Assembly (NCBI GenBank): GCA_021786315.1
Contig: JAJYNN010000002.1
Location: 398,997-462,996 of the forward strand
From: a bacterium
GTDB lineage: Bacteria; Patescibacteriota; Microgenomatia; Daviesbacterales; UBA10151
Direction: 5' to 3'
DNA length: 64,000 nt
Made by a program: the position numbers and the translations under genes. Shown piece after piece: positions 24,816-64,000 of the stretch. A model generated the notes under the pieces. The model had not been told where the DNA came from and ran no database searches. It saw only the letters and a list, made by a program, of their open reading frames with translations. Positions within the stretch are counted from its first letter, which is position 1. Each line of letters opens with the position of its first letter.

Positions 24816-27800
24816 TCAGGCTTGAGTTACGGTGAAGGTGACAGCGCCGCTTTGAGGATCGTACGTTACCGAGCTAAAGTGGCGGCCTTTTTCTTGGACT
24901 ATTTCTTTATATGCTGCAATCTTGTCCAAGTCTGTTTCGGTCAGCTTGTTTATTGAAACCGGGATTCTCAAAGTTCCGTTGGCGCCCAGAATGTTGTTTG
25001 TCATAGCGATTTTCATGCTTCCTGCCATCCGCTCATCCATGCCCTGCCAGTACCTGTCAGCATTGCCATTTCCGTTAATTCCTGCCTCTGGCTCGGTTAC
25101 TTCAGGAGAGGATAGCAGTTCCTTAATATCTGCCTGGGTCGATGTTCCGTTCTGCTTCGGAGGTGTTTTTGCTGACGGAGTACTTTGGGAATTATTTCCG
25201 GCCTCTTTTGCCTCAATTGCCCGTTGGATGTTACGGTCAGGCGTTCCATATTGCTGGTAGTGCTGGTAGGCATCGAAAAGCATTCTGGCAACTAACTTAA
25301 TTTGCATCTGGTTCAATAGCTTATTGTGCGATTCCAGTTGCAGATATTTCCCCAGATTCATTCCGTCAACATCTGTAAAGTCCGGCATTCTTAAATTAAG
25401 GTTGAGTACTTGTTCGGTGACTGGAAGGTGAGCATCTTCACCCGGCCTCAAAGATCTTTGGATCTCCGGCTCGAATAATTTGTAGAATTGGTCGCTGATT
25501 TTATAGTAGTTTTGAGAAAGGATATAAATCCTTTCAGCTACAGCGTTAGCTAAATCTTCTTCATTTTTGAAGTTTCCGCTTTTGCGGATGGAATCTGTAA
25601 GTGAACCCAGGGTGATGTCATTGTCCCCGGTGATTGTCCGTAAAACATTAATGTCGCTGACTGCGGTTTTGGCGGTAACTTCCGCTTCCCTGTCGGGAAT
25701 CAGCTGGTCATTGTCCTGGATCAACCCAAAAACCCTGGTTGTAACAGCATCTTCAAAACTACTCTCCAGCTCCTCAACTTTAGTTTCTTCTGCTATTGGC
25801 TGGTTATCTTCAATTGGTTGGGTATTCGCAAGGTTCTCGGTAGTTGTCTTTATAGGAGCTACCATTCGATCGTGATGGTCTGGATCAGGAGCATATTCAC
25901 CAATCTCCAATCCTCTCTTTTCTCTGGCGAGCATTCTATAAACTGCCATTACCTCCTTGTCGTATAAGGTGGGGTTATCAGGGCTTTTTGCATTGATCCA
26001 GGTAGCTCCGTTCTTTAGATCATTGTCAATGTTATCTAGGATTTGTTGCTCCACCTCTTCCCTGTCTCCTATGGCTTCAAAGTACTGTTCAACCAACTCT
26101 GCCTCGGAAAGATTATTTCCTATTTGGTCCGGAGCTGAATCTGCATCAATCTGTATGGATTCAGTCTGGTTCGGGTTAGAATTGGTTGGTCCAGGTTTTT
26201 GTATTGGGGCTATCATAAATTCTGGGTTGTTCGGGTCTGGTTTAAACTCTCCGATTTCTAACCCCCTTTTGTCTTTGGCCAGTTTTTGCACTGCAGCTAA
26301 TTGCTGTTTATCGTAGTCGGTTAGGTCGTCGCCATGTGCCGGTATGGAGATGGTTCCAGAGGCAACGGATTTGTCAATATTATCCAAAGCAAGAGTTTCA
26401 AACTCTTGCCGATTAGATCCAAGCAGATTATAAAATTGTTCGGCTAAGTCATTGTTTGTATCTTTAGAAGATGGATTGGTTGTTTCTGCTTGTTGTCCTG
26501 CTCTCTGTATCTTATCTGCTTCTTCTTGAGCATGATGTCTTTCGGTTTCGGGCTTATAACCCTGGTCTTTATTCGGTCCAAGCGGTTTTCTTGGCGCCAA
26601 AATAGTGGGAATAAATCCAGCTGCGGGATCAGAAGGACCGGCAATATTTGTGGGTATTGCATGAAGAATTGCATAACCAGGTGAATGGGTGGTGATAGTA
26701 TCTACACCCTGTCCGACGGAGGTGGCAACAATGGAGCGGCCTAAATTTCCGGCTGCATCATGCTCAACATGGGCAATCTCTACAAATTTCGCCAACTGGA
26801 CAACTTTGCCGTTCTCTACTTTAAAGAATTGGTTAAGGTCAGAACCGGAAGGAAGATTAATATGGCCATGGCTATCCTCACTAACTACCAATTTAATGAC
26901 ATCACGAGCCTGGTCGGCTGCATCATTGGGGGTAATTAAAATTTCGAAATTCTTGAAAGTTTTTACTCCGTCGGCTCCGGTTAAGATATCGTGGTTAATA
27001 TCCGTCGGCACGGTATTTTCCCGGATAACATTGGACATATCAATGTCTACTGTTCCGTCAGGGTTAGTGTTTAGCTGAAGCTGGAGCTCATCCCGGTCGT
27101 AGACGCCGGGAGTTCCGTTATCAATGAACCTGGTCCGGTGAGCCTTGTCCGCACTATCTTTGAAAGCATCCAAAGGGTTTTTGGTCTCCGTTTTTCCGGG
27201 GATTTCGGTGGTTGATGTATTAAAACCAGCGGCTTTGAGGTCGGACTGGAGTTTGTCAAAATCAGTCCCGGGAAGCTTGGATTGGTCAAAATCTATTTGG
27301 GCATCATTGCCAACGGTTCCGTGATACTCAACCCCGGTAGATTTATCAGTAAGCACTACCTCGTGGGTTTTCCCGATAACGGTAAGGTTCATCTTGTCGG
27401 TGGAGAAGCTTTCGGTGTTGCCGGAGGTAACAACTGTTTTAATATGGTCAGCGCTCAGCCCCGGGTTTTTGGGTGTCAACTCATGCGCTACATTGAGCCC
27501 GGCGCCGCCGATAAAATTTTGGACGGCGGCTGCTTCAGCAACGTTTGGCCGGCCAAATAAATTGCCGAGGTGTTTGGCGCCACTCTCCACCATTGTTTCG
27601 CCCATGTTTATCCCCAGGGCTCTGCCTCCTACAGCCATGACTTCCTGGGAAATCAATCCTCCCGCAAGACCCGAGATTGCTCCGAATGCCACTGCTTTTG
27701 CCGCTTCTGCCCGACGGTATTTATTAAAATTACTGGTTTGTTCTTGTTGGATATCAGCAAAGTTATTCCAGAACCTTTCATCTGCTTCTATCAACTTGCC

Positions 27801-29681
27801 TGTAATTTGTTCATCGGTTAACCCGGCACCTTTCAATTTTTCCTTGGCGATAACCTGGGCTTTAACAAGTTCCAGCTTTTCTACCTCAGTGGTGAACCGG
27901 TCAGAAAACTGGATTAAATCGACTTTATTGAGGATGCCGTAATCGATACGGGCGTCAATTTCGGCAACTTTTTCAATCAGCTTATTAATGGACAGCTCTG
28001 TAGAAAGGTCAGCATTTGTCAGTGTATCCAGTTCTGAAGATAAACCTTTGGCGGTAACCCTTTCCCCATCCTCTGAGATATTGAGGCGGAACTCATCAAG
28101 CTTAGCCCTTCTTTTGTCCGCCTTCCCTTTATCAGTTTTACCATAAGCACGGTCCCTTTCGTTAAGCTCAAAATCTCTTTTAAGGTCTGTCCATCGCCTG
28201 AGCCCGGCAAAAACTCCGCCTAGGGCTGCTCCAGCCAGAGGGAAACCTGTAGCTGCCTTTGATCCCCAGCCTAAAATCCCTTTTGCCCCAGCCCCGGCTG
28301 CCCCAAAAGCTACTCCAATAAAGAATGGGTTTGCCAGGAGTCCGCGGTATTGTCCTCCCTGCAGCCAGTTCATTGTCTTTTCCAGTTTTGAATAATCTGC
28401 CTCAGTAGTCGCGGCATTGATGGTTCGGGCAAATTGGAAATCCAATCTTTGGTCAAGGTTATCCAGTCCCTCAGTTCCCCGTTCGAAGGACAGCCGGATT
28501 TTTTGGGCAACCTCAAGAATATTGTTACCGATAAATTTAGCGTCTTTAATATAGGCTGCTACATCGGGGTTATTTTTAAGATCTTCGATCAGGGATTGAG
28601 ATTCACTGTTAAATTCATCAACCGTTATCTCTCCTTTGGTAAAACGGGTAATTAACCCGGAAACCTTATTATTAAACTCTGCATTTTCATACTTTGCGGA
28701 TTCTTCCTCTTTGTAAACCTTGCCTTCCGCAACCCGCTCCGCAACGCTGGTAGTTTGAAGTTTTTGTTTTTCCCGGGCGTCGTTTACTTCCTTCAAAGCG
28801 CCGGATAAAGAATCAATTTCGGTAAAGTAAATCCCGCTTTCAATTGCAGCCGCTTGGCATTGCTCAGCTTTAGTATATTTATAATATTGCTCCCCTAGCC
28901 TGAATTTTGCTGCCCTGAACCATTCCAGCGGGTTTAACCTGTTTTTAACATGCAGTTGTTCCCGGACATATTCCCCTGCCTGCTCCCGGGCCATCTTTTT
29001 GGCATCATCGTCGACATTGGCTACACCGATGGTATAACGCTCCACTGAAGACGGCGGTGTAGGTGGGGTTGGTGGAGGTGGGGTTGGCGGGGTTGGTGGA
29101 GGTGGCTCTTCATCCTTCGGAGGCACAAACAGCTCCCGGCGTTTTTTCAGGGTATCAATGGCAATTTCGACATTCTTGTTGTAATCTGGCGTGATTCGCC
29201 CGTCCATCCGCATACGGTAGATCTCTTCCCTTACCCTGGCTTGGTAATAACGGGGTACCCATCTCCAGGGTAAATCAAAGTAGTCCTTGGTATTTTTTCT
29301 TTGGGTTAAAGTCCGGAGTATATCCTGCAGCTCTTGGGCACGGGCCAAATCCTTATTTTTGCGCGCTTCTTTGTGTTGAGCTTCGAGATAGGTCAGCATT
29401 TCATCAACCGGGATTCCTTCTTTCTGCTCCTTGATGACTTTCCCTTTCTCATCTGCCAGTTCAAGTGTTTCCGTACCGTCGCCTCCAGCCTCCAGGTCGG
29501 CAATCCTGGTTTTTATGGTATCGAGTTCAATGCTCTGGGCTTTGGTTCTTTTGGCTTCGGGAATAGTTTCAAAAAGCGACACCCCGTTTTTAAGGGATTC
29601 CACTACCCTCTCGTGAGTTAACCTTTCTTTTCCCTTCGCAGCCTCAGGGGAGATGACAGAGATATCAGGGCTGGTGACCAT
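24816..29681 (-). CDS. Giant hypothetical protein (1621 aa) with a Pro/Thr linker, a Gly-rich hydrophobic segment and internal ~75-aa repeats
   Basis: Single uninterrupted ORF. Contains PPPPTPPTPPPPTPPTPP; GVAFGAAGAGAKGILGWGSKAATGFPLAGAALGGVFAGL; and the duplicated segments ...LAKDKRGLEIGEFKPDPNNPEFMIAPI... and ...LAREKRGLEIGEYAPDPDHHDRMVAPI.... No recognisable enzymatic motif. Confidence 0.6.
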   Translation of the reverse strand: MVTSPDISVISPEAAKGKERLTHERVVESLKNGVSLFETIPEAKRTKAQSIELDTIKTRIADLEAGGDGTETLELADEKGKVIKEQKEGIPVDEMLTYLEAQHKEARKNKDLARAQELQDILRTLTQRKNTKDYFDLPWRWVPRYYQARVREEIYRMRMDGRITPDYNKNVEIAIDTLKKRRELFVPPKDEEPPPPTPPTPPPPTPPTPPSSVERYTIGVANVDDDAKKMAREQAGEYVREQLHVKNRLNPLEWFRAAKFRLGEQYYKYTKAEQCQAAAIESGIYFTEIDSLSGALKEVNDAREKQKLQTTSVAERVAEGKVYKEEESAKYENAEFNNKVSGLITRFTKGEITVDEFNSESQSLIEDLKNNPDVAAYIKDAKFIGNNILEVAQKIRLSFERGTEGLDNLDQRLDFQFARTINAATTEADYSKLEKTMNWLQGGQYRGLLANPFFIGVAFGAAGAGAKGILGWGSKAATGFPLAGAALGGVFAGLRRWTDLKRDFELNERDRAYGKTDKGKADKRRAKLDEFRLNISEDGERVTAKGLSSELDTLTNADLSTELSINKLIEKVAEIDARIDYGILNKVDLIQFSDRFTTEVEKLELVKAQVIAKEKLKGAGLTDEQITGKLIEADERFWNNFADIQQEQTSNFNKYRRAEAAKAVAFGAISGLAGGLISQEVMAVGGRALGINMGETMVESGAKHLGNLFGRPNVAEAAAVQNFIGGAGLNVAHELTPKNPGLSADHIKTVVTSGNTESFSTDKMNLTVIGKTHEVVLTDKSTGVEYHGTVGNDAQIDFDQSKLPGTDFDKLQSDLKAAGFNTSTTEIPGKTETKNPLDAFKDSADKAHRTRFIDNGTPGVYDRDELQLQLNTNPDGTVDIDMSNVIRENTVPTDINHDILTGADGVKTFKNFEILITPNDAADQARDVIKLVVSEDSHGHINLPSGSDLNQFFKVENGKVVQLAKFVEIAHVEHDAAGNLGRSIVATSVGQGVDTITTHSPGYAILHAIPTNIAGPSDPAAGFIPTILAPRKPLGPNKDQGYKPETERHHAQEEADKIQRAGQQAETTNPSSKDTNNDLAEQFYNLLGSNRQEFETLALDNIDKSVASGTISIPAHGDDLTDYDKQQLAAVQKLAKDKRGLEIGEFKPDPNNPEFMIAPIQKPGPTNSNPNQTESIQIDADSAPDQIGNNLSEAELVEQYFEAIGDREEVEQQILDNIDNDLKNGATWINAKSPDNPTLYDKEVMAVYRMLAREKRGLEIGEYAPDPDHHDRMVAPIKTTTENLANTQPIEDNQPIAEETKVEELESSFEDAVTTRVFGLIQDNDQLIPDREAEVTAKTAVSDINVLRTITGDNDITLGSLTDSIRKSGNFKNEEDLANAVAERIYILSQNYYKISDQFYKLFEPEIQRSLRPGEDAHLPVTEQVLNLNLRMPDFTDVDGMNLGKYLQLESHNKLLNQMQIKLVARMLFDAYQHYQQYGTPDRNIQRAIEAKEAGNNSQSTPSAKTPPKQNGTSTQADIKELLSSPEVTEPEAGINGNGNADRYWQGMDERMAGSMKIAMTNNILGANGTLRIPVSINKLTETDLDKIAAYKEIVQEKGRHFSSVTYDPQSGAVTFTVTQA

Positions 29682-31163: not shown

Positions 31164-31526
31164 CTACGAAACTTTTTTATAAATCGAATTAAAGATTAAG
31201 TTTAATTCTTTGGCTTCGTTCCATAATTCTCGAGCTTCATCTTTAAGTTCTGGAATTGCGACTGCAATCATCCTAATGAAATGCTTTGCTTCATGAGACT
31301 CTTTTTTGCATATACCAATCTTATGCCTAAAGTCTACTTTACTTTCCGCATCATCTGCTTCACAATAATTTGCTCCTGCGCTAGTTGCACATTTTACTAA
31401 CTGATTTATTAGTGGGTCATTTAATGGGCTTCGTGGAATTTTTTGACAGAATTTAATTATTGACTCACCAAATTTAGCAGTTCTCTCTTCCAGATCAAAT
31501 CTCTTAGAACTTAGATCATTAGGCAT
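31164..31526 (-). CDS. Four-helix-bundle protein (23S rRNA intervening-sequence protein family, TIGR02436-like)
   Basis: 120 aa. Similar in pattern to IVS four-helix-bundle proteins (...CATSAGANYCEADDAESKVDFRHKIGICKKESHEAKHF...). Confidence 0.65.
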   Translation of the reverse strand: MPNDLSSKRFDLEERTAKFGESIIKFCQKIPRSPLNDPLINQLVKCATSAGANYCEADDAESKVDFRHKIGICKKESHEAKHFIRMIAVAIPELKDEARELWNEAKELNLIFNSIYKKVS

Positions 31527-31552: not shown

Positions 31553-32677
31553 TTACTTTCTTGTTAAACTTTCAACTTCTTCCAAAGCTGCTTTTCTTTT
31601 GGGATCCTCGAAATATTTTCTGGCTGGTTCCAATTTATTGATTAGCCATTCAGCTACGGCATTTTTTAAATCCATGGGGTGGAGTTTTTTCTCAGCATAA
31701 TCTTTCTCTAACTCTTCATAGGAAGTGTAAGTTAAATTCCCTCCAAACCTCTCCTCCCTTTTAACCACAAAAGAGGTGTTTAGTTCGTAAAAGATTAACC
31801 ATTTTGTCCAATCCAAAATGGGATTGAATTCAACCTCTCCCTCCGGCGCATAAGCGTGATTGATCTTTCTTTTGATTTCTTCCGGGGTATCGTTCATGTA
31901 AATACCGCTATCGGGTTTGGATTTGCTCATCTTGGCTGCCTCGAGATCCATTTCCTTACGGCCGGTTTCCGGGTTTTCAATTAGGGATGGTTGAAGAAGA
32001 CCTTGGAATAAATGGCCGTGAATAGTGATGGGCTTTTGAAAACCTAACTCATTGGCCGCATCCCGGGCAACGACATGGACATTCCTTTGGTCAGTTCCTG
32101 CCTGGGCAATGTTTACTTCCTGCATAAAGATATCCGCTGCCTGCATGGCCGGATAAATCAGCATGGCTGCATCGGAGACTTCGTTTTCCTTCCTTCCCAT
32201 GATAGTTGTGGAACGGATCATCCTGGATAATGAGGTAGCCTTGGCAACCCGGATAACGGTAGCCCAATAGCTTAAGCCTAATTTTTCATATAGTTCACTG
32301 CCTAGGACAAATTCTATCTTGTCAGGGTCGGCGCCCACACAAAGAGCGGCGGCCTTTAAAACTTCTTCCAGGTAGTCCCTTCCAAGCCTTTTGGCTGTTT
32401 CCAGCTTTCCGTCCAGCTTTTTATTTAACCAGGTGTGCCAATCAGCCAATAATATTGTGGTCTTTACTCCGGCTTCCTGCAGGTCTTTGATTTTGTGCAT
32501 AATGTAAAGTCCCTGGCCAATGTGTATTTTGCCTGAGACTTCGTAGCCGATGTAATGTTTCATGGTTTTGCCAGAGGCAATCAAATCCTCTAACTCTTCA
32601 GGGGTGATAACTTCCTCTAAGTTTCTGGTAATTAAATTAAATTTCTCTTCGTTGGTCATAAATTGATTATACACCAC
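31553..32677 (-). CDS. tyrS: Tyrosyl-tRNA synthetase, archaeal/eukaryal type
   Basis: 374 aa. HYIGYEVSGKIHIGQG (HIGH-like region) ...TILLADWHTWLN... KMSKSKPDSGIYMNDTPEEIKRKI (KMSKS). Strongly resembles archaeal TyrRS (for example the M. jannaschii [27 protein letters not shown] region). Confidence 0.8.
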   Translation of the reverse strand: MVYNQFMTNEEKFNLITRNLEEVITPEELEDLIASGKTMKHYIGYEVSGKIHIGQGLYIMHKIKDLQEAGVKTTILLADWHTWLNKKLDGKLETAKRLGRDYLEEVLKAAALCVGADPDKIEFVLGSELYEKLGLSYWATVIRVAKATSLSRMIRSTTIMGRKENEVSDAAMLIYPAMQAADIFMQEVNIAQAGTDQRNVHVVARDAANELGFQKPITIHGHLFQGLLQPSLIENPETGRKEMDLEAAKMSKSKPDSGIYMNDTPEEIKRKINHAYAPEGEVEFNPILDWTKWLIFYELNTSFVVKREERFGGNLTYTSYEELEKDYAEKKLHPMDLKNAVAEWLINKLEPARKYFEDPKRKAALEEVESLTRK

Positions 32678-50511: not shown

Positions 50512-52065
50512 TTAAAGGTCGTTACCGGTGTAGGATAAATTAAAGCTTTTGTTAATCAACGGGAAATCCGGAACCATGTTCCCCTGGCCTGCGTGTCCCA
50601 AGACTGTCCAGTTAATAAATGACGGATCACGGACATCAACCCGGGTGATTTGACCTTTGCTGTCAGTGGCCACAAGATAGACAATATCACCTCTCCAGCC
50701 CTCTACAACCCCGATAGAATAGGAGTTTTTCTCCAAGTTGATATCTTTTCCATCCCTCCCTTTTTCTTCCTTGGGAAGATCCCAGAGGGCTTGTTTTAAG
50801 ATCTCGATGGAATTTAAAAGCTCCTGCACCCGCACCCTGAACCTGGCGTAAACATCGCCGGAATTTTCTTTTGCCACTTCAACTTTAATCTTGTCATAAG
50901 CTGCATAAGGATAATCCACCCGGGCATCCATCTCAAAGCCCACTGCCCTGCCGGCCACCCCTAAAGCTCCGTGGTCCCGGGCAATCCTTTCGTTCAATAC
51001 CCCGGTTTTTTTCAACCTGGTAAGCAAGGACCCCGTACCCATGGCAATCTTAATTACTTCCGAAAAATCTGCCTTTAATTTTTCCAGGTCTTCCGCCAAT
51101 TTCTTGGCCTGGTCGGAAGTCAAATCAGCATTTACTCCTCCGATCTTAATCACTCCCCGGAGGAATCTGCTTCCGGTTAACTTTTCATTGATCTGCATGA
51201 CTATTTCCCTTAAACGTCCGCCCTGGGCGCCGCCAAAGTTAAACCCGGTATCGGTCATGATTGCTCCGATGTCCCCCAAGTGGTTGGCGACCCTTTCCAG
51301 CTCGGCAAAGATGACCCTTAAGTATTCTTCCCTCTCGGAAATCTCAATTTTCCCCAACTGTTCTACCGCCTGGCAGAAAGCCAAGGCGTGGGAAAAGGAG
51401 CTGTCGCCGGAGATCCTCTCAGCCAGCTTTACTTTCTCCTCCAAAGATAGAACCTCAAAAAGCTTCTCGCTCCCCTTGTGGGTATACCCCAACCTCGGTT
51501 CCAGCATCAGGATCTCCTCTCCGGCCACGCTAAACCGGAAATGCCCCGGTTCAATAATACCGGCGTGGACTGGCCCAACCGGAATTTCATAAATCCCTTC
51601 CCCGATCATCTTTCGGAATTGGAATTGGACTCCGCCTTTTTGAGGCCTTTCCTTCCAGTTAAAGCTTTTCCTTAAAGGATAAACATTGTCCGGCCAATTT
51701 TCATGAAGGATGATCGACCTTAAGCTGGGGTGGCCCTTTGGCGTTAAGCCAAAGAGGGTTTTTATTTTTCGCTCGTAATTGGAGGCTTCATGCATGATTG
51801 GTGTAACTGAAGGGAAGCTTTCTTTTACCAGAATGTAGGGCGCCAAAAATACGTGTTCTTTAGGAACGCCAAAAATGTAGATGATTTTGAATTCTTTTCC
51901 TAAATCCTGGGCAGTGATAGTTTTTAAATGTAGCTTATGGTTTACGGATAAGTCCTGGCAGACTCCCACAATGTCTTCTACCTTAACCTGAAAACAAGTC
52001 AAAGCTCCAAAGACTTCCGGTTTGTTTTTCGAAGCATGTTTTTTAATTAAATCCTGGTATTTCAT
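50512..52065 (-). CDS. NuoC-NuoD fusion / hydrogenase-4 large-subunit-like protein (HyfG/HycE-like) without [NiFe]-binding cysteines
   Basis: 517 aa. IPVGPVHAGIIEPGHFRF (NuoD/HycE motif). It has LGYTHKGSEK where hydrogenases have RxCGxCxxxH, and a DPSFIN C-terminus where they have DPCxxC. Confidence 0.8.
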   Translation of the reverse strand: MKYQDLIKKHASKNKPEVFGALTCFQVKVEDIVGVCQDLSVNHKLHLKTITAQDLGKEFKIIYIFGVPKEHVFLAPYILVKESFPSVTPIMHEASNYERKIKTLFGLTPKGHPSLRSIILHENWPDNVYPLRKSFNWKERPQKGGVQFQFRKMIGEGIYEIPVGPVHAGIIEPGHFRFSVAGEEILMLEPRLGYTHKGSEKLFEVLSLEEKVKLAERISGDSSFSHALAFCQAVEQLGKIEISEREEYLRVIFAELERVANHLGDIGAIMTDTGFNFGGAQGGRLREIVMQINEKLTGSRFLRGVIKIGGVNADLTSDQAKKLAEDLEKLKADFSEVIKIAMGTGSLLTRLKKTGVLNERIARDHGALGVAGRAVGFEMDARVDYPYAAYDKIKVEVAKENSGDVYARFRVRVQELLNSIEILKQALWDLPKEEKGRDGKDINLEKNSYSIGVVEGWRGDIVYLVATDSKGQITRVDVRDPSFINWTVLGHAGQGNMVPDFPLINKSFNLSYTGNDL

Positions 52066-52069
52066 ATTG

Positions 52070-53518
52070 CTATTTTACTAAAAGCGATGCCTGCTGAACC
52101 AGTGATTTTACCGGTTCCGGCAGGAAAATGCTGATAATAACAAACAAGCTTAAAAGAAAAATTGCCGGGATAACTGTCAGGTAATTTGATTCCCCTACCG
52201 GTACATTTTCTATATTCGGCCCCAAAGCCATATTGGTAGTATGCCTTAAAAACCCGACAAAAATAATGGCTAAAGCAATTAGGATTCCGACTACCACCAG
52301 AGGATAAGCAGCCATCCCGGAAGTTAAAATATAAAATTCCGTCATAAAAATTCCAAACGGCGGCATGCCGATAATGGCCAAAAACCCGATGAGTAGGATA
52401 ATACCGGTGATTGGTAAGACGGTAAGGGTTCCCTTGACGTTGTATATTTTGGTAGAACTGTATTTTAAGAAGATATTTCCGGCAGAGAAAAAGAGGGTTG
52501 ATTTAGTGAGTGAGTGATAGATCATGTGAAGGAGCGCGGCGAAAGTTCCCAGCCCCCCAAAACCAAACCCCAAGGCCATAATCCCCATGTGTTCGATACT
52601 GGAGTAAGCAAAGAGCCGTTTGTAGTTTTTTTGGATGACGATAATGAAAGCCGGAATGACAACCGACATGGCTCCAAAGAGTATCAGCAGGTTCTGCGAA
52701 AAAAGTGGTCCGACGGTTATATCTGCGACAGCCTTATATCTTAAAATAGCCATTAAAGCGACATTAAGCAGTGCTCCTGACAAAAGGGCGCTGACTGGGG
52801 ATGGAGCTTTACTGTGGGCATCAGGCAACCAGGTGTGCATTGGTGCCAGTCCTGCTTTGGTCCCGTAGCCGATCAGGACAAAAACGAAGGCAATTTTGGC
52901 CAGTAATGGGTTTAATAAATGGGCATTGGCCAAAAGTACTTGCCAGCTGATAAAGGAATCGGCTGCCAGATTCATGGTTGGGCTTAAGAAAAGTAATGTC
53001 CCGAAGAGCCCGAGCGAGAGCCCAATGGAGTTGATAATTAAGTATTTCCAGGCTGCTTCCATGGCTGAGGGCTTGTTGTAAAAGCTGATTAAGAAGGCAG
53101 TGGCCAATGTAGTGGCCTCAATTGAAAGCCAGGTTAAGATTGGGTTGGTGGTGGTGACGGCAAAAAACATGGCTAGCAAGAAAAGGTGGAAAAGGACAAA
53201 GTATTGTCTGACCCGGCGGAAACCGATGATCTCCTTTTGAACTTCCCGCCTTAGATAGCCAATGGAATAATATGAAGCGGCAAAGCCGACGACAACAATG
53301 GTGGAAAGGACGATAGTCCCCAGCGGATCAAGGGAAAGGAAAGATCCGAAAGAATAACTTTTTTGCCCCAGCACGGAAATCGCGGACATGATTAGCGATC
53401 CCAGCTCAATAGGCGCGGCCATGGCAGCAATTAGTTCCAAAGGCCAAATTTTCCTCGGCACCGCAAGTGAGAGCAGAACTGCGATGATCGGTGTAATCAC
53501 TAATAAAATTAAAGCCAT
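52070..53518 (-). CDS. NuoN/NuoM/MrpD-family antiporter-like subunit (HyfF/HyfD-like)
   Basis: 482 aa, ~14 TM helices of the proton-antiporter membrane-subunit family (Proton_antipo_M). Confidence 0.8.
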   Translation of the reverse strand: MALILLVITPIIAVLLSLAVPRKIWPLELIAAMAAPIELGSLIMSAISVLGQKSYSFGSFLSLDPLGTIVLSTIVVVGFAASYYSIGYLRREVQKEIIGFRRVRQYFVLFHLFLLAMFFAVTTTNPILTWLSIEATTLATAFLISFYNKPSAMEAAWKYLIINSIGLSLGLFGTLLFLSPTMNLAADSFISWQVLLANAHLLNPLLAKIAFVFVLIGYGTKAGLAPMHTWLPDAHSKAPSPVSALLSGALLNVALMAILRYKAVADITVGPLFSQNLLILFGAMSVVIPAFIIVIQKNYKRLFAYSSIEHMGIMALGFGFGGLGTFAALLHMIYHSLTKSTLFFSAGNIFLKYSSTKIYNVKGTLTVLPITGIILLIGFLAIIGMPPFGIFMTEFYILTSGMAAYPLVVVGILIALAIIFVGFLRHTTNMALGPNIENVPVGESNYLTVIPAIFLLSLFVIISIFLPEPVKSLVQQASLLVK

Positions 53519-53519
53519 A

Positions 53520-54176
53520 TTATTCTGTTAACTCCCTCATTGAGCTGACATCAAGCGAACCGAATTGGCGGAAAATCATGGTGGTAAAGATACTGGCGAT
53601 TGTGACCCAGATAAAGATACTGGCGGTAATCCCCAGTTGTAAGGCTGGGCTTTGTTCCAGGCCGGCGAATAAGGCGAATGAAACAATGCTATTTTCCAGC
53701 GATAGGACCCCTAAGGCTTGGGACAGGGCGCCTTTGCGGTTAATGCTCAAAAAGAGTGAGATTAAGATTGTGGCCATTGAAATAAACAATAGGTCCTGGC
53801 TGGAGGGAGATAGGAAGATTAGCGGTTTGAAAAAGCTGGCCTGGGTCAGGATGGAAAGAAGCACCATGACGGCAACCGTTAAGGGGGTGTTAAGAAAGGT
53901 GCTATGGGAAAAATTTGACGGATGGCGCTTAATCAGTTTCAGGAAAAAGTATGGGGCAAAAACAACCTTGACGGCGATGGTGGCGATAATGGCAATCAAA
54001 AGCAACAAGGACAGTTTCTGGAAGGAAGAAAGAAGTAATAAAATGGCGATGGCGGCGGATTGAAGCATATATAGTTTAACGGCGATTGAGTCCTTTTTTG
54101 TCAGGTTTAGAAGGACCACTGTTCCAAAGATCAGTGTGGAGAAGATTAATGAAATTTGTGGTGTTAAGTAATGCAT
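53520..54176 (-). CDS. HyfE-like small membrane subunit
   Basis: 218-aa polytopic membrane protein. Size and position match HyfE of hydrogenase-4-type operons. Confidence 0.45.
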   Translation of the reverse strand: MHYLTPQISLIFSTLIFGTVVLLNLTKKDSIAVKLYMLQSAAIAILLLLSSFQKLSLLLLIAIIATIAVKVVFAPYFFLKLIKRHPSNFSHSTFLNTPLTVAVMVLLSILTQASFFKPLIFLSPSSQDLLFISMATILISLFLSINRKGALSQALGVLSLENSIVSFALFAGLEQSPALQLGITASIFIWVTIASIFTTMIFRQFGSLDVSSMRELTE

Positions 54177-54180
54177 ATTT

Positions 54181-55131
54181 TTAGATAATTAAGATAATTG
54201 CTGCTACGCTCAGGGCAAATGAGGTAAATAACAGTTTCGGCAATTTAAAGATCCGGAGCTTGGCAATGCTGGATTCCAAAGCGGCAATGCCCAGACAAAA
54301 CAGCCCGGCTTTGACCATAAATAATAATAAAGTTACCAAAATTTGGCTGGCATTACCCGATCCGGTAATTCCCCAAGGGAAAAACATATTTACTCCCAAG
54401 GCAATAAAGATCAGGTATTTATTGGCGGAAGCCCACTCGATAAGAGCCAGCCTTTTCCCGGAGTATTCCAGGATCATGGCCTCATGGATCATGGTCAGCT
54501 CAAGATGAGTCGACGGATTATCAAACGGGTAGCGGCAGGTTTCCGCCAGAAGAGAGATGGTAAAGCTGGCAAAGGCCAAGATAACCGGGGCAAAGTTAAT
54601 AAGCGGCATGGAGGTCATGTTGTGAATAATTCCGGTAAGGTTAGTGGTGTGGCTGATTAAGGCCAGGGTCAAGATTGACAGGACCAACCCTCCTTCGGTC
54701 AAAGATGCCACTAACATCTCCCGGCTGGAACCGAAGCCGCCGAAGGCTCCCCCGGTATCAATTCCGGCCAAAGCCAAAAAGAATGTCCCAAAGGCCAAAA
54801 GATAAATAACCACCAGAAAATCACTGGTAAATATCGTTGGCAGAGTTGTAGAAAAAAGCGGGATAATGGCCCCGATAAAGATTGTGGAGGCAAAGATAAG
54901 GTATGGTGCAGCCAGGAAAACCCAGGAAGCATCATGGCTAACCACTTCATCCTTGTGAAGCAGTTTCCAAAGATCCCGGTATGGTTGGGTTATGGGTGCG
55001 CCCCGGCGGTTTTGCAATTTGGCTTTGACTTTTCTGGTTAACCCAATAAATAACGGCGATACCGCGGGAATTAAGATTATCTGGAGTAATACTAACAAAA
55101 TGTTTGTCATATATTTATAAGGCAAGGACAA
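54181..55131 (-). CDS. NuoH/HycD/HyfC-like membrane subunit
   Basis: 316 aa. KLQNRRGAPITQPYRDLWKLLHKDEV matches the conserved NuoH/HycD loop (R.GP...QP..D..K). Confidence 0.8.
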   Translation of the reverse strand: MSLPYKYMTNILLVLLQIILIPAVSPLFIGLTRKVKAKLQNRRGAPITQPYRDLWKLLHKDEVVSHDASWVFLAAPYLIFASTIFIGAIIPLFSTTLPTIFTSDFLVVIYLLAFGTFFLALAGIDTGGAFGGFGSSREMLVASLTEGGLVLSILTLALISHTTNLTGIIHNMTSMPLINFAPVILAFASFTISLLAETCRYPFDNPSTHLELTMIHEAMILEYSGKRLALIEWASANKYLIFIALGVNMFFPWGITGSGNASQILVTLLLFMVKAGLFCLGIAALESSIAKLRIFKLPKLLFTSFALSVAAIILII

Positions 55132-57139
55132 ATAATATACCGATTAAGGCAATCAGAATATAAAGAATATAAGCATTAGTGTAGCCAACCTGGATCTTTT
55201 TCATTTGTCCCGCAGTGTCTAAAACAAGCTTCCTTAATGGTTGATAAATATAGGGCATATAGATATCCTGGAGCTCCAGGTGAATGGCGTTACTTTTGGG
55301 GAAATATTTCATCCTCTCATCGTCATATTCAACTTCAGTTTCCTTCAATGGCTTTAAAACTTTTTGGAAAACCGTAATAAAGGACCGGGAAAATCCGGTG
55401 GCGGTAATTTCCATTCTTGGGGAAAGATCTGAACCGCAATCCCAGGTGATATTGCGGCTGACTTTTTGGGTTCGGGTTAGAAGGTAAGTTATCCCGGCAA
55501 CTACTGTCAGAGCTGCCACCAATCCAATGAAGATTTGGGGCATGGAAATAAAGGCAAAGTTGTTGGCAATATTTACGGATTGGGTTTGGGCATGGATCAT
55601 TGTTTCAGTTCCTGAAAGGTTAATTAAGCTTGCGGCAACTTTATTTAAGAATCCGGTCACGGTTCCGGAGAAAAACCCTAATACTATGGTTAAAGCAGCC
55701 AGCCCGGCCATTCCTGCCCTTAAAGGAACCCCGGGTTCCTTAGTATGAGCTACTTCCTGGTTTCTGGGTCTGGCTAAAAAAGTGGCTCCGAAGGCCTTAA
55801 CAAAACAGGCTGCCGCCAGCCCTCCGGTAAAAGCCAAGGCTCCGGCAGAAAGGATAAAGGTCAGTTTGGTTAAGACATCAAACCTCAAAACCCCCTGGAA
55901 AAGGGATTGGAAGGTCATCCATTCGCTGAAGAAGCCGTTGAATGGAGGCAAGGCTGAGATGGCCATCGACCCAATCAAAAAGAACAACGCAGTTTGAGGC
56001 ATATGCTTAATTAACCCCCCGTATTCCTCGATATTCCGGGTATGGGTTTCGGAAATGACTGATCCCGCCCCCATAAACAGGAGGGCTTTAAAGGTGGCGT
56101 GGTTTAAGGTGTGGTATAAGGCGGCTATCAACCCGATGGCAGCCAAGGAGTAAAGGTGGGCGGAGACAAAGACAAAAGCGCTCCCCAACCCCAATAAGAT
56201 AATGCCGATATTTTCAATACTGTGGTAGGCCAAAAGTTTTTTGATATCGTGTTCTGCCAAAGCGTAAAGTACTCCCAAAAGTGAAGAGACTGCTCCAAGA
56301 ATAAGTATCAAAAGCCCCCACCAAAGCGGAACAGCCGGCAGGAAGAAGAGGCTGAACCTAATTAACATATAGATACCTGTTTTAATCATTACGCCCGACA
56401 TTAAAGCTGAGACATGGGTTGGTGCGGCGGGATGGGCGCTGGGGAGCCAGATATGCAACGGAATAATCCCGGCTTTGGTGCCAAATCCAAAGAGGGCAAA
56501 GAGCAAAATCAAATTAGTAATTTGGGAAGGGGCATGGACAATACCTGTCTTAATGGCTTCAAACTCAAATGACCCGGTGACGCTGTACATTAACAGAAAG
56601 GCTAGGACAATGAAGGCGGTGCCGACGTGGGTCATCATGAAATAAAGCGATCCGGCCTTTATATTGTTGTGTTCCCGGTTTTCGTAAATGACCAGGAAGT
56701 AAGAGGCCAAAGACATCAATTCCCAAACGATTAAGAAAAATAAGGCATTATGGGAGGTAGCCACTAAAATCATGCTGGCGATAAAGATGTTATAGAAAAA
56801 CCCTAAAACGCCGATGTTGTACTTTTTGTAGTAATGCTTAACGTAACCTAAAGCATAAATTGAGGCCAAGGTGGCAATTGTACAGATGATCAACATAAAG
56901 TAGGTTGAAAGCTGGTCAAACTTAAAAGTAAAGGAAAGCAAGGGGAAGGCAGAAGGTACAGTTAAAATTGGGGTAGTTCCTGAAAGTAACGTTTGGATGG
57001 AAAATATCAGCCCGGCTACTGACCCAGCGATGGCAAAGAGGTTACCCCAGAGGTTGGCCGCCTGGTCTTTCTTCCCTAAAAATAATGAGCCCAGGGCTCC
57101 AATAGTAAACAATAACAAAATGCTGTAAAAATAATTCAT
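55115..57139 (-). CDS. NuoL/MrpA/HyfB-like antiporter subunit
   Basis: 674 aa (HyfB is ~672 aa). Proton_antipo_M core plus the long C-terminal extension typical of NuoL/HyfB. Confidence 0.8.
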   Translation of the reverse strand: MNYFYSILLLFTIGALGSLFLGKKDQAANLWGNLFAIAGSVAGLIFSIQTLLSGTTPILTVPSAFPLLSFTFKFDQLSTYFMLIICTIATLASIYALGYVKHYYKKYNIGVLGFFYNIFIASMILVATSHNALFFLIVWELMSLASYFLVIYENREHNNIKAGSLYFMMTHVGTAFIVLAFLLMYSVTGSFEFEAIKTGIVHAPSQITNLILLFALFGFGTKAGIIPLHIWLPSAHPAAPTHVSALMSGVMIKTGIYMLIRFSLFFLPAVPLWWGLLILILGAVSSLLGVLYALAEHDIKKLLAYHSIENIGIILLGLGSAFVFVSAHLYSLAAIGLIAALYHTLNHATFKALLFMGAGSVISETHTRNIEEYGGLIKHMPQTALFFLIGSMAISALPPFNGFFSEWMTFQSLFQGVLRFDVLTKLTFILSAGALAFTGGLAAACFVKAFGATFLARPRNQEVAHTKEPGVPLRAGMAGLAALTIVLGFFSGTVTGFLNKVAASLINLSGTETMIHAQTQSVNIANNFAFISMPQIFIGLVAALTVVAGITYLLTRTQKVSRNITWDCGSDLSPRMEITATGFSRSFITVFQKVLKPLKETEVEYDDERMKYFPKSNAIHLELQDIYMPYIYQPLRKLVLDTAGQMKKIQVGYTNAYILYILIALIGILFVLAL

Positions 57140-57672
57140 GCTTTCTTTTCCATATCACTTAATATTGTTAATAATGCTTCAATAATTTGCTTAGGTGAAG
57201 GCGGATCTCCGGGAATCTGGTAATTTACCGGGATAACACTCGCTACTCCATCCTCTACCGCATAAGAACCCTTAAAAATTCCTCCGGAGATGGCGTCATT
57301 CCCCACTGCCACCACAATTTTGGGATCAGGAGTGGCGTTATAGGTTTTAATCAAAGCTTCTTTCATGTTGCGGCTGACCGGTCCTGTGACCATTAACATA
57401 TCCGCATGCCTGGGAGAGGCCACAAAATGTACCCCGAAACGGTCAACATCGTAATAGGAATTTCCTAAGGCCACCAATTCCTGTTCGCAGGCATTGGTGG
57501 ATCCTGCGGTGACTACCCTAATAGCCAAAGACCCTTTAAAAAGTTTTTTAACCTTCTTTTGGATCTCTTTTCCTACAAGATATGCGTCCTTATCCTGGCT
57601 CAAATTAAAGGACTTTGTGTCAACTAAAGTTCCTGGTGTCTTAAAAATCTTCAAAAATAAGTTGGTTATCAC
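57136..57672 (-). CDS. NuoB/HycG-like small subunit with 3 of 4 [4Fe-4S] cysteines substituted
   Basis: 178 aa, GTG start. DVDRFGVHFVASPRHADMLMVTG core is conserved. TNACEQE replaces the CC motif, VGNDAISGG replaces GxCAxxGG, and IPGDPPSP replaces PGCPP. Confidence 0.75.
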   Translation of the reverse strand: MITNLFLKIFKTPGTLVDTKSFNLSQDKDAYLVGKEIQKKVKKLFKGSLAIRVVTAGSTNACEQELVALGNSYYDVDRFGVHFVASPRHADMLMVTGPVSRNMKEALIKTYNATPDPKIVVAVGNDAISGGIFKGSYAVEDGVASVIPVNYQIPGDPPSPKQIIEALLTILSDMEKKA

Positions 57673-60898: not shown

Positions 60899-61459
60899 AT
60901 GGATATCTTGCTGGACAACCTAAATTGGATGTCCTTTAATGTAGCCTTGGCTTTGATGGCCGTGATTTTTGGCTATCTTTTCCTTCATTCGAGGAATTTG
61001 TACGCAAGGATATTATTTTTTGTCCTCTGGATACTTTTTATTCCCAACACAATTTACTTGGTTACGGATTTAAAGTGGCTGCCGGAACAATTCCCAAAAT
61101 TGGATTTGCAAAACCAGTTAATTCTTGTTGCCCAATATCTTGTCCTTTTGCTTACCGGGTTGGTTACCTTTTTCTTTGGGTTACGTCCCCTGGAAGAGGT
61201 TTTATCCAAGCCCAAACACAGAATTAATATTCCAGTTCCTGTAATTATTTTCCTGGCTAATTACCTAATTGCCTTTGGAGTGGTTTTGGGGAGGGTGGAA
61301 AGGATCAACTCCTGGGATGTCTTTACCCGGCCATCAACAGTTTTTACGAGTGCCAGCAATATCTTTAATTCCCAAGAGGATCTAATCTTCATTCTTCTTT
61401 TTGGAACCTTGTCCAACTTAATTTATTTTGCATGGAAGCAATTTTTAAAGTTTAATTAG
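60899..61459 (+). CDS. DUF1361-family membrane protein
   Basis: 186 aa, 5 TM helices. RVERINSWDVFTRP matches the conserved R.NSWD motif of DUF1361. Confidence 0.6.
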   Translation: MDILLDNLNWMSFNVALALMAVIFGYLFLHSRNLYARILFFVLWILFIPNTIYLVTDLKWLPEQFPKLDLQNQLILVAQYLVLLLTGLVTFFFGLRPLEEVLSKPKHRINIPVPVIIFLANYLIAFGVVLGRVERINSWDVFTRPSTVFTSASNIFNSQEDLIFILLFGTLSNLIYFAWKQFLKFN

Positions 61460-61533
61460 CAAAGTTATTCTCCTGGTTTAACTTACTATTATAGGTGGTT
61501 TTTGCCTACAGGGATTGATATAATATCTCGTGA

Positions 61534-61606
61534 CCTGAGGTGGCCGAACGGTTGAGGCGACAGTCTGTAAAACTGTTTTAAGTAGGTTCGACTCCTACCC
61601 TCAGGA
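61534..61606 (+). tRNA. tRNA-Tyr (anticodon GTA), class I (5-nt variable loop), C1:G72, A73, no encoded CCA
   Basis: Manual fold: acceptor CCTGAGG/CCTCAGG (7 bp); D stem GCC/GGC; anticodon stem ACAGT/ACTGT with loop CTGTAAA (U33, GUA, A37); variable TTTAA; T stem GTAGG/CCTAC with loop TTCGACT; discriminator A. Confidence 0.8.
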
Positions 61607-61698
61607 CAAAGACGGAGTTTTTGGTATGAGGGCAAGCTCTGCTTACCCTCAGGGCTAAGTATACTGAGTATGGGAAAAACTGCTATACTTTACTTAAT

Positions 61699-64000
61699 AT
61701 GCCGCTGAAACGCTTGCATGGAGGCTACTCCAATCATTCTTATTCCCGGGCGAAGTTTTTATCTAAATTCTCCAGTTTTACTTTGGCCGCTATCTTAATA
61801 TTCCTGGTGCTTTGTGTGATTGGTGTGGTGGTATTTATGTTCCAGGTCCCCTCTCCCCAGTCGCTCTCTAACCGGGATGTGGCCCAAGCCACAAAAATTT
61901 ACGACCGTAACGGGGAGCTCCTTTATGATATCTTTCAAAATGAAAACCGGACACCGGTTAAGCTTAACGACGTTCCCCCTTATGTAAAACAAGCCACAAT
62001 TTCTATTGAGGATAAAGACTTTTATAAACACCAGGGTTTTTCCGTAACCGGTATTATCCGCTCCATGCTCGATTTGGTTATCCACCGCCAGGTTGAGGGA
62101 GGAGGTTCTACCTTAACCCAGCAGCTGGTCAAGAATGCGCTGCTTTCCCCGGAGAGAACAATTACCCGAAAAATTAAAGAATTTATTTTAGCTATTCAGG
62201 TTGAAAGAGCCTATTCCAAGGACCAGATTTTAGAAATGTACCTTAATGAAATTCCTTATGGTGGTACGGCCTATGGTATCGAAGCGGCAGCAAATTTGTA
62301 TTTTGGCAAGCACGCCAAGGATTTGGATTTAGCGGAAAGTGCGCTACTCGCCGGGCTTCCCCAGATGCCTTCTGTTTATTCCCCTTATGGGACTCACCCG
62401 GAGCTTTCTAAAGTCCGGCAGGCGGAGGTTTTGCGCCGGATGGAAGAGGATGGGTATATAACGAAGGAACAAGAAGCAGCCGCTAAAGCGGAAACCTTAA
62501 CTTACCGAACATCACAAAATGAGCTTGGCTTTAAAGCTCCCCACTTCGTGCTTTATGTTAAACAAAAGTTAATCGAACAATATGGTGACAAGATGGTGGA
62601 ACAAGGCGGGTTAAAGGTTACCACAACTTTGGATTACAAGTTACAAGAAAAGGCGGAAAAAATTGTTAAGGATGAGATCGGTAAGCTAAAGGCTGACCAT
62701 GTAGGCAACGGAGCGGCGGTAGTGATGAACCCTCAAAATGGGCAGATCTTAGCTTTAGTAGGCAGTAAGGACTACTTTGGCAAATCCGAACCTGATGGTT
62801 GTGAGGAAGGCAAAACATGTACCTTTGAACCAAATGTAGATGCTGCATTGTCTCCGAGGCAGCCGGGATCGGCAACTAAACCGATCACCTACTCAGTTGG
62901 TTTGCAGAAGGGTTATACTGCGGCTACAGTTTTAATGGATGTGAAGACAGAATTTCCCGGAGGTGCCGGCCAGCCGTCTTACATGCCGGTTGATTACGAC
63001 GGCCAGTGGCATGGACCGGTGGAGGCACGTTATGCGCTGGGTAACTCCTTAAATATTCCCGCTGTGAAGATGTTGGCTTTGGCCGGAGTAAAAAATGTGA
63101 TGGATTTAGGATTTAGAATGGGCCTTTCAACCTGGGAGCCGACTGACGAAAATATCAGCAGTGTTGGGCTTTCTCTGACCTTGGGCGGTCGTGAAGTAAG
63201 GCTGTTGGATTTGACCTCGGCTTACGCTGTTTTTGCTGATGCCGGTGTCAAGCAAGAACCCATTTCTATCTTAAAAGTTGAAGATTCTAAAGGTAAAGTT
63301 TTATATGACTACAAACAATCTGATGGCACTAAAGTTTTGGATCCGGGAATAGCCTTCATTATTTCTAATATTTTATCGGACAACGGCGCCCGAACTATGG
63401 CTTTCGGAACTAACTCTGTTTTAAACATTCCCGGTAAAACAGTTTCAGTAAAAACCGGAACTACTGATGAAAAAAGGGATAACTGGGCTGTAGGATTCAC
63501 TCCTTCTGTGGTGGTTGGTGTCTGGGTAGGAAATAATAACAACGATAAGATGAATCCGGCTATTGCTTCCGGTATTACCGGGGCTTCCCCGATTTGGCAA
63601 AAAATCATGACGGCGGCCCTAAAGGACAAGTCGGATGAAAAACCGCAGCAGCCGGATAACGTTTCCTATGTTGATGTGGATGGCCTAATGGGAGGAAAAC
63701 CTCACGACGGTTCACCGACCAGGAAGGAGTATTTTATTAAGGGCACTGAGCCAACCAATACGTCTTGGGCTTACCAAAACCAAAAGGTTTGTCAAAATAA
63801 TCCTCACAGGCTGGCAAACGACGGTGAACCGGCAGACCAAAAAGATGTCATTGTCTTGAAAGAGGATGATCCAACAGGTGCCAATAAATGGCAGGCTGGA
63901 ATTGACCAGTGGGTGCTGACGGCTCCTAATCCGCTTCTAGTAGGTATGGGCCGGGGTTGTAACGGAATTCCCGGATTTTCCGGTGGTTCAACGGGTGGAG
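61699..64000 (+). CDS. Class A penicillin-binding protein (bifunctional glycosyltransferase/transpeptidase, PBP1A-like), 3' partial
   Basis: No stop before the window end, so it is absent from the ORF track. N-terminal TM. GT51 motifs EDKDFYKHQGF, GGSTLTQQLVKN, RKIKEFILAIQVE. Transpeptidase motifs SATKP (SxxK), SLN (SxN) and KTGTT (KTG). Confidence 0.85.
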   Translation, partial: MPLKRLHGGYSNHSYSRAKFLSKFSSFTLAAILIFLVLCVIGVVVFMFQVPSPQSLSNRDVAQATKIYDRNGELLYDIFQNENRTPVKLNDVPPYVKQATISIEDKDFYKHQGFSVTGIIRSMLDLVIHRQVEGGGSTLTQQLVKNALLSPERTITRKIKEFILAIQVERAYSKDQILEMYLNEIPYGGTAYGIEAAANLYFGKHAKDLDLAESALLAGLPQMPSVYSPYGTHPELSKVRQAEVLRRMEEDGYITKEQEAAAKAETLTYRTSQNELGFKAPHFVLYVKQKLIEQYGDKMVEQGGLKVTTTLDYKLQEKAEKIVKDEIGKLKADHVGNGAAVVMNPQNGQILALVGSKDYFGKSEPDGCEEGKTCTFEPNVDAALSPRQPGSATKPITYSVGLQKGYTAATVLMDVKTEFPGGAGQPSYMPVDYDGQWHGPVEARYALGNSLNIPAVKMLALAGVKNVMDLGFRMGLSTWEPTDENISSVGLSLTLGGREVRLLDLTSAYAVFADAGVKQEPISILKVEDSKGKVLYDYKQSDGTKVLDPGIAFIISNILSDNGARTMAFGTNSVLNIPGKTVSVKTGTTDEKRDNWAVGFTPSVVVGVWVGNNNNDKMNPAIASGITGASPIWQKIMTAALKDKSDEKPQQPDNVSYVDVDGLMGGKPHDGSPTRKEYFIKGTEPTNTSWAYQNQKVCQNNPHRLANDGEPADQKDVIVLKEDDPTGANKWQAGIDQWVLTAPNPLLVGMGRGCNGIPGFSGGSTGG

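Follow-up and report, generated by a model that had tools for sequence, protein, structure and literature searches.

Introduction

The attachment of tyrosine to its tRNA follows a textbook identity rule that differs between the domains of life, which is why archaeal pairs of tyrosyl-tRNA synthetase (TyrRS) and tRNA-Tyr are orthogonal in Escherichia coli. Archaeal and eukaryal TyrRS depend on the base pair C1-G72, on A73 and on the anticodon, whereas the bacterial enzyme recognizes A73 and the anticodon and, through an S4-like domain, also binds the long variable arm of the tRNA (PMC5370408, PMC1934993). The closest described systems to the one treated here were reported in 2017 by Mukai, Reynolds, Crnkovic and Soll ('Bioinformatic Analysis Reveals Archaeal tRNATyr and tRNATrp Identities in Bacteria', Life 7:8; PMC5370408), namely C1-G72 tRNA-Tyr together with archaeal-type TyrRS in Microgenomates. 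In the tree of that study, Daviesbacteria form one of the major groups of bacterial TyrRS, and a Daviesbacteria TyrRS serves as a reference point; DPANN archaea were inferred as the TyrRS donors. Within the Candidate Phyla Radiation (CPR), many C1-G72 tRNA-Tyr keep the long arm, which was read as a sign of bacterial descent, and armless forms occur as well (PMC5370408). A Roizmanbacteria genome is reported to contain both forms. The subject of this text is a tRNA-Tyr gene and a tyrS gene, the latter encoding a TyrRS of the archaeal/eukaryal type, which lie 29 kb apart in a single stretch of DNA. This stretch, hereafter the window, is a 64-kb section of contig JAJYNN010000002.1 (942,606 bp).

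Judging from the sequence, tyrosine charging in the window very probably follows the archaeal/eukaryal identity rules, with a TyrRS that was acquired horizontally and then inherited vertically. Bacteria that natively operate on the archaeal rule show that no identity set is bound to one domain of life, and that a synthetase can pass from one domain to another provided that its tRNA adapts. The remaining interest of such systems lies in the route of this adaptation, i.e., import of the tRNA or a flip of the first pair with loss of the arm, and in their possible spread beyond the CPR.

The tRNA-Tyr gene

ARAGORN detects one tRNA in the window, a tRNA-Tyr with the anticodon gta at 61534-61607 (plus strand), and no further tRNA. 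The match to the covariance model RF00005 of Rfam runs from 61534 to 61606 and covers the whole model with 61.5 bits (gathering score 29), which delimits a gene of 73 nt. The minimum-free-energy fold of the single sequence is a cloverleaf. Its acceptor stem, CCTGAGG/CCTCAGG, carries C1:G72 (61534/61605) and C2:G71, and the discriminator base is A73 (61606). The anticodon arm reads ACAGT-CTGTAAA-ACTGT, with GTA at 61567-61569 and A at position 37. Between the anticodon and T stems lies a variable loop of 5 nt (TTTAA, 61577-61581) and no long arm, and the tRNA is thus of class I. The T-arm is GTAGG-TTCGACT-CCTAC, with the T-loop TTCGACT. The D-arm, GCCGAACGGTTGAGGC, has a 3-bp stem GCC/GGC flanked by G13.A22, and the motif GCCGAAYGG is present in the tRNA body. 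The CCA end is not encoded in the gene. The identity set of C1:G72, A73 and GUA is complete, as read from the sequence, the ARAGORN prediction and the Rfam alignment. The tRNA body lacks the archaeal features of Methanocaldococcus jannaschii tRNA-Tyr, namely a 4-bp Watson-Crick D-stem and the G37 of the wild-type tRNA.

Relatives of the tRNA were sought in one genome per prokaryotic species with a pattern describing a bacterial-body tRNA-Tyr that ends in G72-A73. The scan returned at least 120 matches. At least ten class I relatives with C1:G72 are among the matches listed, all taken as CPR; they are labelled Shapirobacteria or Patescibacteria, with a few doubtful labels, and no Daviesbacteria are among the matches listed. 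The Shapirobacteria relatives are without the long variable arm, as is the window tRNA. ARAGORN assigned tRNA-Tyr in all six class I relatives scanned.

The window tRNA-Tyr was aligned with nine class I relatives from CPR genomes. Standard pairs occupy 200 of 200 pair cells in this alignment of ten sequences, and compensatory changes on both sides occur in seven of the 20 pairs, compared with 0-1 in control structures displaced by 1-3 columns. Because of these compensatory changes, the cloverleaf can be regarded as kept across the nine relatives. C1 and C2:G71 never vary, though the search pattern did not demand them. The constancy of G72 and A73 is built in, since the pattern called for both.

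The tyrosyl-tRNA synthetase

The tyrS gene is located at 31553..32677 on the minus strand. Read from a GTG codon, the open reading frame (ORF) encodes 374 amino acids. Translation probably begins six codons in, at the ATG at 32659, which gives 368 amino acids, and this is where a 100% identical database protein of 368 amino acids (P0001) begins. The protein matches the NCBIfam model NF006330 (PRK08560, the equivalog for archaeal-type TyrRS) over residues 7-365, with 424 bits, the cut-off of the model being 220. Pfam assigns PF00579, the class Ic catalytic domain, alone (152 bits), and detects no C-terminal S4-like domain in the 374-amino-acid protein. Among structures in the PDB, the best match is 2cyc from Pyrococcus horikoshii (358 bits, 5e-106), followed by 7fg6, Aeropyrum pernix (300 bits), Archaeoglobus fulgidus and the enzymes of eukaryotic parasites. 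M. jannaschii (197 bits) and the human and yeast enzymes (146-160 bits) stand lower, and bacterial TyrRS reach 38-48 bits, with weak E-values of about 1e-8 to 1e-11 (7e-9 for 1h3e).

For residue mapping, the M. jannaschii TyrRS sequence was used, which is identical to chain A of 1j1u and shows 47% identity with the window TyrRS over the alignment. The class I motifs are HIGQ at 52-55 and KMSKS at 249-253. The tyrosine pocket is kept, with Y42, Q179, D182 and Q197 corresponding to Y32, Q155, D158 and Q173 of M. jannaschii. The C1-reading arginines are kept as well, as Arg155 and Arg198 (Arg132 and Arg174 of M. jannaschii), and in the anticodon-binding region H283 and D286 of M. jannaschii are conserved, D286 being Asp336 of the window TyrRS. 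If the homologous M. jannaschii complex is taken as a model, Arg155 and Arg198 would read C1, A73 would act as the discriminator, and Asp336 would read G34, which is the role of Asp286 in M. jannaschii.

Enzyme and tRNA appear to fit each other, and not bacterial partners, because the former combines the C1-reading arginines with the absence of an S4-like domain, and the latter combines C1:G72 and A73 with the absence of the long arm. The window TyrRS thus probably charges the window tRNA-Tyr. No second TyrRS of either type and no second tRNA-Tyr were found in the 64-kb window.

An earlier note on this DNA, made from the letters alone, had described a class I tRNA-Tyr(GUA) with C1:G72 and a 5-nt variable loop, and an archaeal/eukaryal-type tyrS at 31553..32677 of the same window, 29 kb away. 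The tRNA assignment agrees with the sequence, with ARAGORN and with the covariance-model fit. The type of the enzyme is borne out by NF006330, by PF00579 without S4 and by the PDB ranking, and both genes indeed reside in the one window. The note had also pointed to a close resemblance to M. jannaschii TyrRS around the KMSKS region. This resemblance stands locally, but overall the enzyme is closer to the longer form found in P. horikoshii and A. pernix.

Host and genomic context

The window contains bacterial genes for GyrB, the DNA polymerase III delta' subunit, RecG and the a, alpha and beta subunits of an F-type ATP synthase. It also holds a type IV pilus set consisting of PilB, PilT, PilC, PilM and a prepilin peptidase (PilD) with a bacterial N-terminal domain. 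The guanine-plus-cytosine (GC) content is even across the window, at 41-46%. The best 120 homologs of the TyrRS are 66-100% identical to it; every named one is assigned to Candidatus Daviesbacteria or to the Microgenomates group, and some are located on contigs of 0.5 to 1.02 Mb. The TyrRS protein itself is found on three contigs, one of which is the contig of 942,606 bp. By its gene content and its TyrRS relatives, the host is classified as a CPR bacterium of the Microgenomates group that is Daviesbacteria-like.

The gene order ATPase-tyrS-recG-L32-NusB-RNase III-S16-TrmD-PilM is common to the window and to two relatives (loci L128 and L129), whose TyrRS are 79% and 74% identical to that of the window. 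Within 10 kb of tyrS in these two relatives, neither a bacterial-type TyrRS nor a second tRNA-Tyr was found. As judged from this context, tyrS is a stable resident of the bacterial chromosome and not archaeal contamination. The archaeal-type TyrRS would have been gained by an old horizontal transfer, and tyrS would since have been passed on vertically at a fixed position between the F-ATPase operon and recG.

Related loci outside the CPR

About 100 of the 120 matches listed in the relatives scan belong to Family XIII Clostridia (Anaerovoracaceae), for example L007 (4610-4681, minus strand), L036, L098 and L116. Among them are the cultured Emergencia timonensis, [Eubacterium] infirmum, Mogibacterium, Anaerovorax odorimutans and Eubacterium sp. 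F2, the last with a complete genome (NZ_CP176393.1). Their tRNA-Tyr, CGAGGGA...TCCCTCG-A-CCA, has C1:G72 and keeps the normal long variable arm. No TyrRS gene is present in the fetched 8-kb Family XIII loci.

A linked arrangement occurs in five loci of non-CPR bacteria, where an arm-bearing C1:G72 tRNA-Tyr directly precedes an archaeal-type tyrS. Two of these cassettes are from Omnitrophota (L022, 6338-7602; L064, 72-1347) and the others from further non-CPR bacteria (L028, 2078-3335; L057, 3554-4979; L068, 4887-6126). The tRNA-Tyr lies 40-210 nt upstream of the TyrRS gene on the same strand. The encoded enzymes of 380-396 amino acids are 68-79% identical among themselves and 43-46% identical to the window TyrRS. 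Their nearest named relatives are from Candidatus Hinthialibacter and Omnitrophota, followed by Woesearchaeota, Nanoarchaeota and Pacearchaeota at 56-62%. This pattern would fit a second, independent acquisition from DPANN archaea by bacteria that do not belong to the CPR. The phyla of the cassette loci are absent from the 2017 report (PMC5370408).

Both types of TyrRS are found side by side in L125 (10001-14644), and also in L126 and L127, with a TyrRS cluster labelled Caldisericia. Four genes lie within 4.6 kb in L125, encoding an archaeal-type TyrRS (376 amino acids), a radical-SAM protein, an amidohydrolase and, on the opposite strand, a bacterial-type TyrRS of 402 amino acids (PF00579 and S4). 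No tRNA-Tyr is located within 10 kb in L125-L127. The Nanoarchaeota contigs L123 and L124 (2905-4023, 10001-11131) carry two class Ic synthetase genes (372 and 376 amino acids; PF00579) 6 kb apart, of which one is a TyrRS gene.

When metagenomes were scanned for relatives that share the T-loop but bear the arm, almost only G1:C72 class II forms were returned. Five of the closest matches were scanned for tRNAs, and three of these lie in phage-like tRNA arrays; for none did the similarity of its proteins to those of the window give a link to the CPR. The loci L222 (248-10445), L231 (1259-7723) and L238 (179-3188) are dense arrays of 11-19 tRNA genes and probably belong to phages. L222 includes a tRNA with a CUA anticodon, which ARAGORN labels 'Pyl'. 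The class II tRNA-Tyr of these arrays share the T-loop TTCGACT and a short D-loop with the window tRNA.

Alternative explanations and origin of the tRNA

Several observations weigh against the reading that tyrosine charging in the window follows the archaeal/eukaryal rules. In M. jannaschii TyrRS, Arg132, Arg174 and Lys175 read C1-G72, with Lys175 contacting G72 (PMC1934993). The lysine is replaced by Asn199 in the window TyrRS and by Asn in four Daviesbacteria/Microgenomates homologs. This change may be harmless, since yeast TyrRS reads G72 through the equivalent of Arg132 (PMC1934993). The archaeal-type enzyme and its tRNA could also be an additional tyrosine system, orthogonal to a normal bacterial pair encoded elsewhere in the genome. 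Such coexistence has parallels, as the two TyrRS types are only 2.3 kb apart in L125-L127, albeit in another lineage, and bacterial and archaeal TrpRS/tRNA-Trp coexist in a Beckwithbacteria genome (PMC5370408). Moreover, about 880 kb of the contig lie beyond the window. This explanation is nevertheless improbable in view of the lack of a bacterial-type TyrRS and of a second tRNA-Tyr, both in the 64-kb window and within 10 kb of tyrS in the two syntenic relatives, and of the placement of tyrS among housekeeping genes in conserved order. CPR genomes of about 0.94 Mb usually keep one copy per synthetase, which likewise weighs against an auxiliary pair. The archaeal-type pair is probably the sole tyrosine system of the cell. 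Farther still from being credible is an artefact, in which tyrS or the tRNA would stem from an archaeon (DPANN) and would have entered the bacterial contig through faulty assembly or binning. CPR and DPANN organisms do co-occur, and cross-contamination of their bins is known (PMC5370408). However, both genes are part of one contiguous window with bacterial genes on both flanks, the TyrRS protein recurs on three contigs, and the gene order around tyrS is the same in the independent assemblies L128 and L129. Contamination is unlikely because of this bacterial context and synteny, and a chimera was rejected on the same grounds together with the even GC content.

A different question is how the tRNA came by its identity set. 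The earlier note had proposed that the enzyme and its tRNA were replaced together. The enzyme and the identity set of the tRNA did change in concert, but the tRNA gene itself need not have been replaced, given its 3-bp D-stem, G13.A22 and A37. Because these features look bacterial (or eukaryote-like), remodelling in place appears at least as likely as replacement of the gene. We lean slightly towards the view that the window tRNA-Tyr is a resident bacterial class II tRNA-Tyr that was remodelled by a flip of the 1:72 pair and then lost its arm. Its D-arm and A37 match those of bacterial class II tRNA-Tyr. When the core was compared, i.e., the tRNA-Tyr without acceptor stem and variable region, identity to the window tRNA was 81% for the arm-bearing C1:G72 tRNA beside the archaeal-type tyrS of L028, 81% for an ordinary Holosporaceae tRNA-Tyr (L045), 72% for E. 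coli, 69% for yeast (sequence from PMC12168002) and 59% for M. jannaschii (body checked in PMC6337575). Three points weaken the case for remodelling. Yeast scores about the same as E. coli and shares the T-loop TTCGACT and a similar 3-bp D-stem; the archaeal side of the comparison is represented by one reference, M. jannaschii; and the identities of 81-85% come from sequences retrieved by patterns that fix about half of the compared positions. An argument for bacterial origin from the identities of 81-85% was therefore dropped, in view of the pattern-fixed positions and of yeast scoring like E. coli. The rival account, which we consider rather unlikely, is that the tRNA-Tyr was imported with tyrS from an archaeal (DPANN-like) or eukaryote-like donor, displaced the resident gene and was later separated from tyrS by 29 kb. 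Import would account directly for the full archaeal/eukaryal identity set and the class I shape of the tRNA, and for the resemblance of its T-loop and D-arm to yeast tRNA-Tyr. The linked cassettes of the Omnitrophota type indicate that such a pair can move as a unit, and archaeal origins are allowed for some of these tRNAs (PMC5370408). Yet the tRNAs of the cassettes bear the arm and have clearly bacterial-type bodies, A37 and the G13.A22-flanked D-stem of the window tRNA are unlike M. jannaschii tRNA-Tyr, and no tRNA-Tyr was found within 10 kb of the DPANN tyrS genes examined.

Remodelling can be extended to a path of several steps. The five arm-bearing C1:G72 tRNA-Tyr/tyrS loci are plausible intermediates of a conversion. 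More tentatively, and with somewhat less than even confidence, the window tRNA might be the endpoint of a stepwise conversion from G1:C72 with an arm, via C1:G72 with an arm, to C1:G72 without one, the intermediates surviving outside the CPR. Such survivors would be of two kinds, the tRNA-Tyr/tyrS cassettes of Omnitrophota and Hinthialibacter-like bacteria and the arm-bearing C1:G72 tRNA-Tyr of the cultured Family XIII Clostridia. If this is true, more bacteria have undergone the identity switch than was stated in 2017, and its path could be reconstructed.

Neighbouring features

Upstream of the tRNA gene, a tentative extended -10 promoter element, TGATATAAT, was noted by eye at 61516..61524 (plus strand). 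It ends 10 nt before the 5' end of the tRNA, which implies a leader of only about 3 nt, and its role as a promoter element of tRNA-Tyr is a weak inference. A scan for two-hexamer sigma-70 promoters in 61300-61800, upstream of and around the tRNA gene, gave no match. A repeat search revealed a direct repeat at 61596..61659 (plus strand; 14 of 16 positions identical). Its first copy, TACCCTCAGGACAAAG at 61596-61611, comprises the final 11 nt of the tRNA-Tyr gene and 5 nt downstream. The second copy, TACCCTCAGGGCTAAG at 61644-61659, is located 48 nt downstream, shortly after the open frame of the following large ORF begins. The repeat could be what is left of an integration or a duplication, or could have arisen by chance. 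The ORF in question (61630-64000, plus strand) begins just past the tRNA gene, has its likely start at the ATG 61700 and runs out of the window after more than 790 codons. A match with 31% identity is found in the metagenome locus L226.

Near tyrS, a gene at 31164-31526 (minus strand) encodes a four-helix-bundle '23S rRNA-intervening sequence protein' (PF05635). It follows tyrS on the same strand after a gap of 27 nt, and is not at this position in the relatives L128 and L129. Between recG and tyrS lies an ORF of 1621 amino acids (24816-29681, minus strand), for which there is no Pfam match at E <= 0.01.

Downstream of the F-type ATPase operon, a membrane module resembling complex I or a group-4 hydrogenase occupies 50512-57672 (minus strand). 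It comprises a fused 30-kDa and 49-kDa subunit (517 amino acids), antiporter-like subunits (482 and 674 amino acids), a NuoH-like protein (316 amino acids) and a NuoB-like 20-kDa protein (178 amino acids). CPR genomes are usually without respiratory complexes, and the module thus seems unusual.

Comparison with known systems

The bacterial pair, as known from E. coli and Thermus thermophilus (1h3e), resembles the window pair in the architecture of the D-arm, in A37 and in the anticodon loop of the tRNA, and both enzymes belong to class Ic (PF00579). In contrast to the G1:C72 and the variable arm of 13-14 nt of bacterial tRNA-Tyr, the first pair is inverted and the arm absent in the window tRNA. 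Bacterial TyrRS carries a C-terminal S4-like domain, which the window TyrRS is without.

The M. jannaschii pair (1j1u), which is the orthogonal pair normally used to expand the genetic code, likewise has C1:G72, A73, GUA and a 5-nt variable loop. Its TyrRS has 306 amino acids, whereas the window enzyme with its 374 amino acids is P. horikoshii-like, being extended at its C-terminus and carrying an insertion ahead of KMSKS. The two enzymes further differ in Lys175, which is Asn in the window TyrRS. The D-stem of M. jannaschii tRNA-Tyr has 4 bp, that of the window tRNA 3 bp, accompanied by G13.A22 and A37.

A parallel case within the CPR is provided by the tRNA-Trp(A73)-TrpRS-A operons of Microgenomates, in which an archaeal-type class Ic enzyme is likewise combined with an identity-matched tRNA (PMC5370408). 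Those genes are linked in an operon and coexist with a bacterial pair, whereas tRNA and enzyme are 29 kb apart in the window, which holds no bacterial partner. The closest match remains the CPR tyrosine systems of 2017, which have the same enzyme type and the same C1-G72 pair, with nothing essential different (PMC5370408). Many of these C1-G72 tRNA-Tyr keep the long arm, while the window tRNA is armless. The exchange for an archaeal-type TyrRS/tRNA-Tyr system has been known for Daviesbacteria since that report, and the window is a further example of it that adds no new principle.

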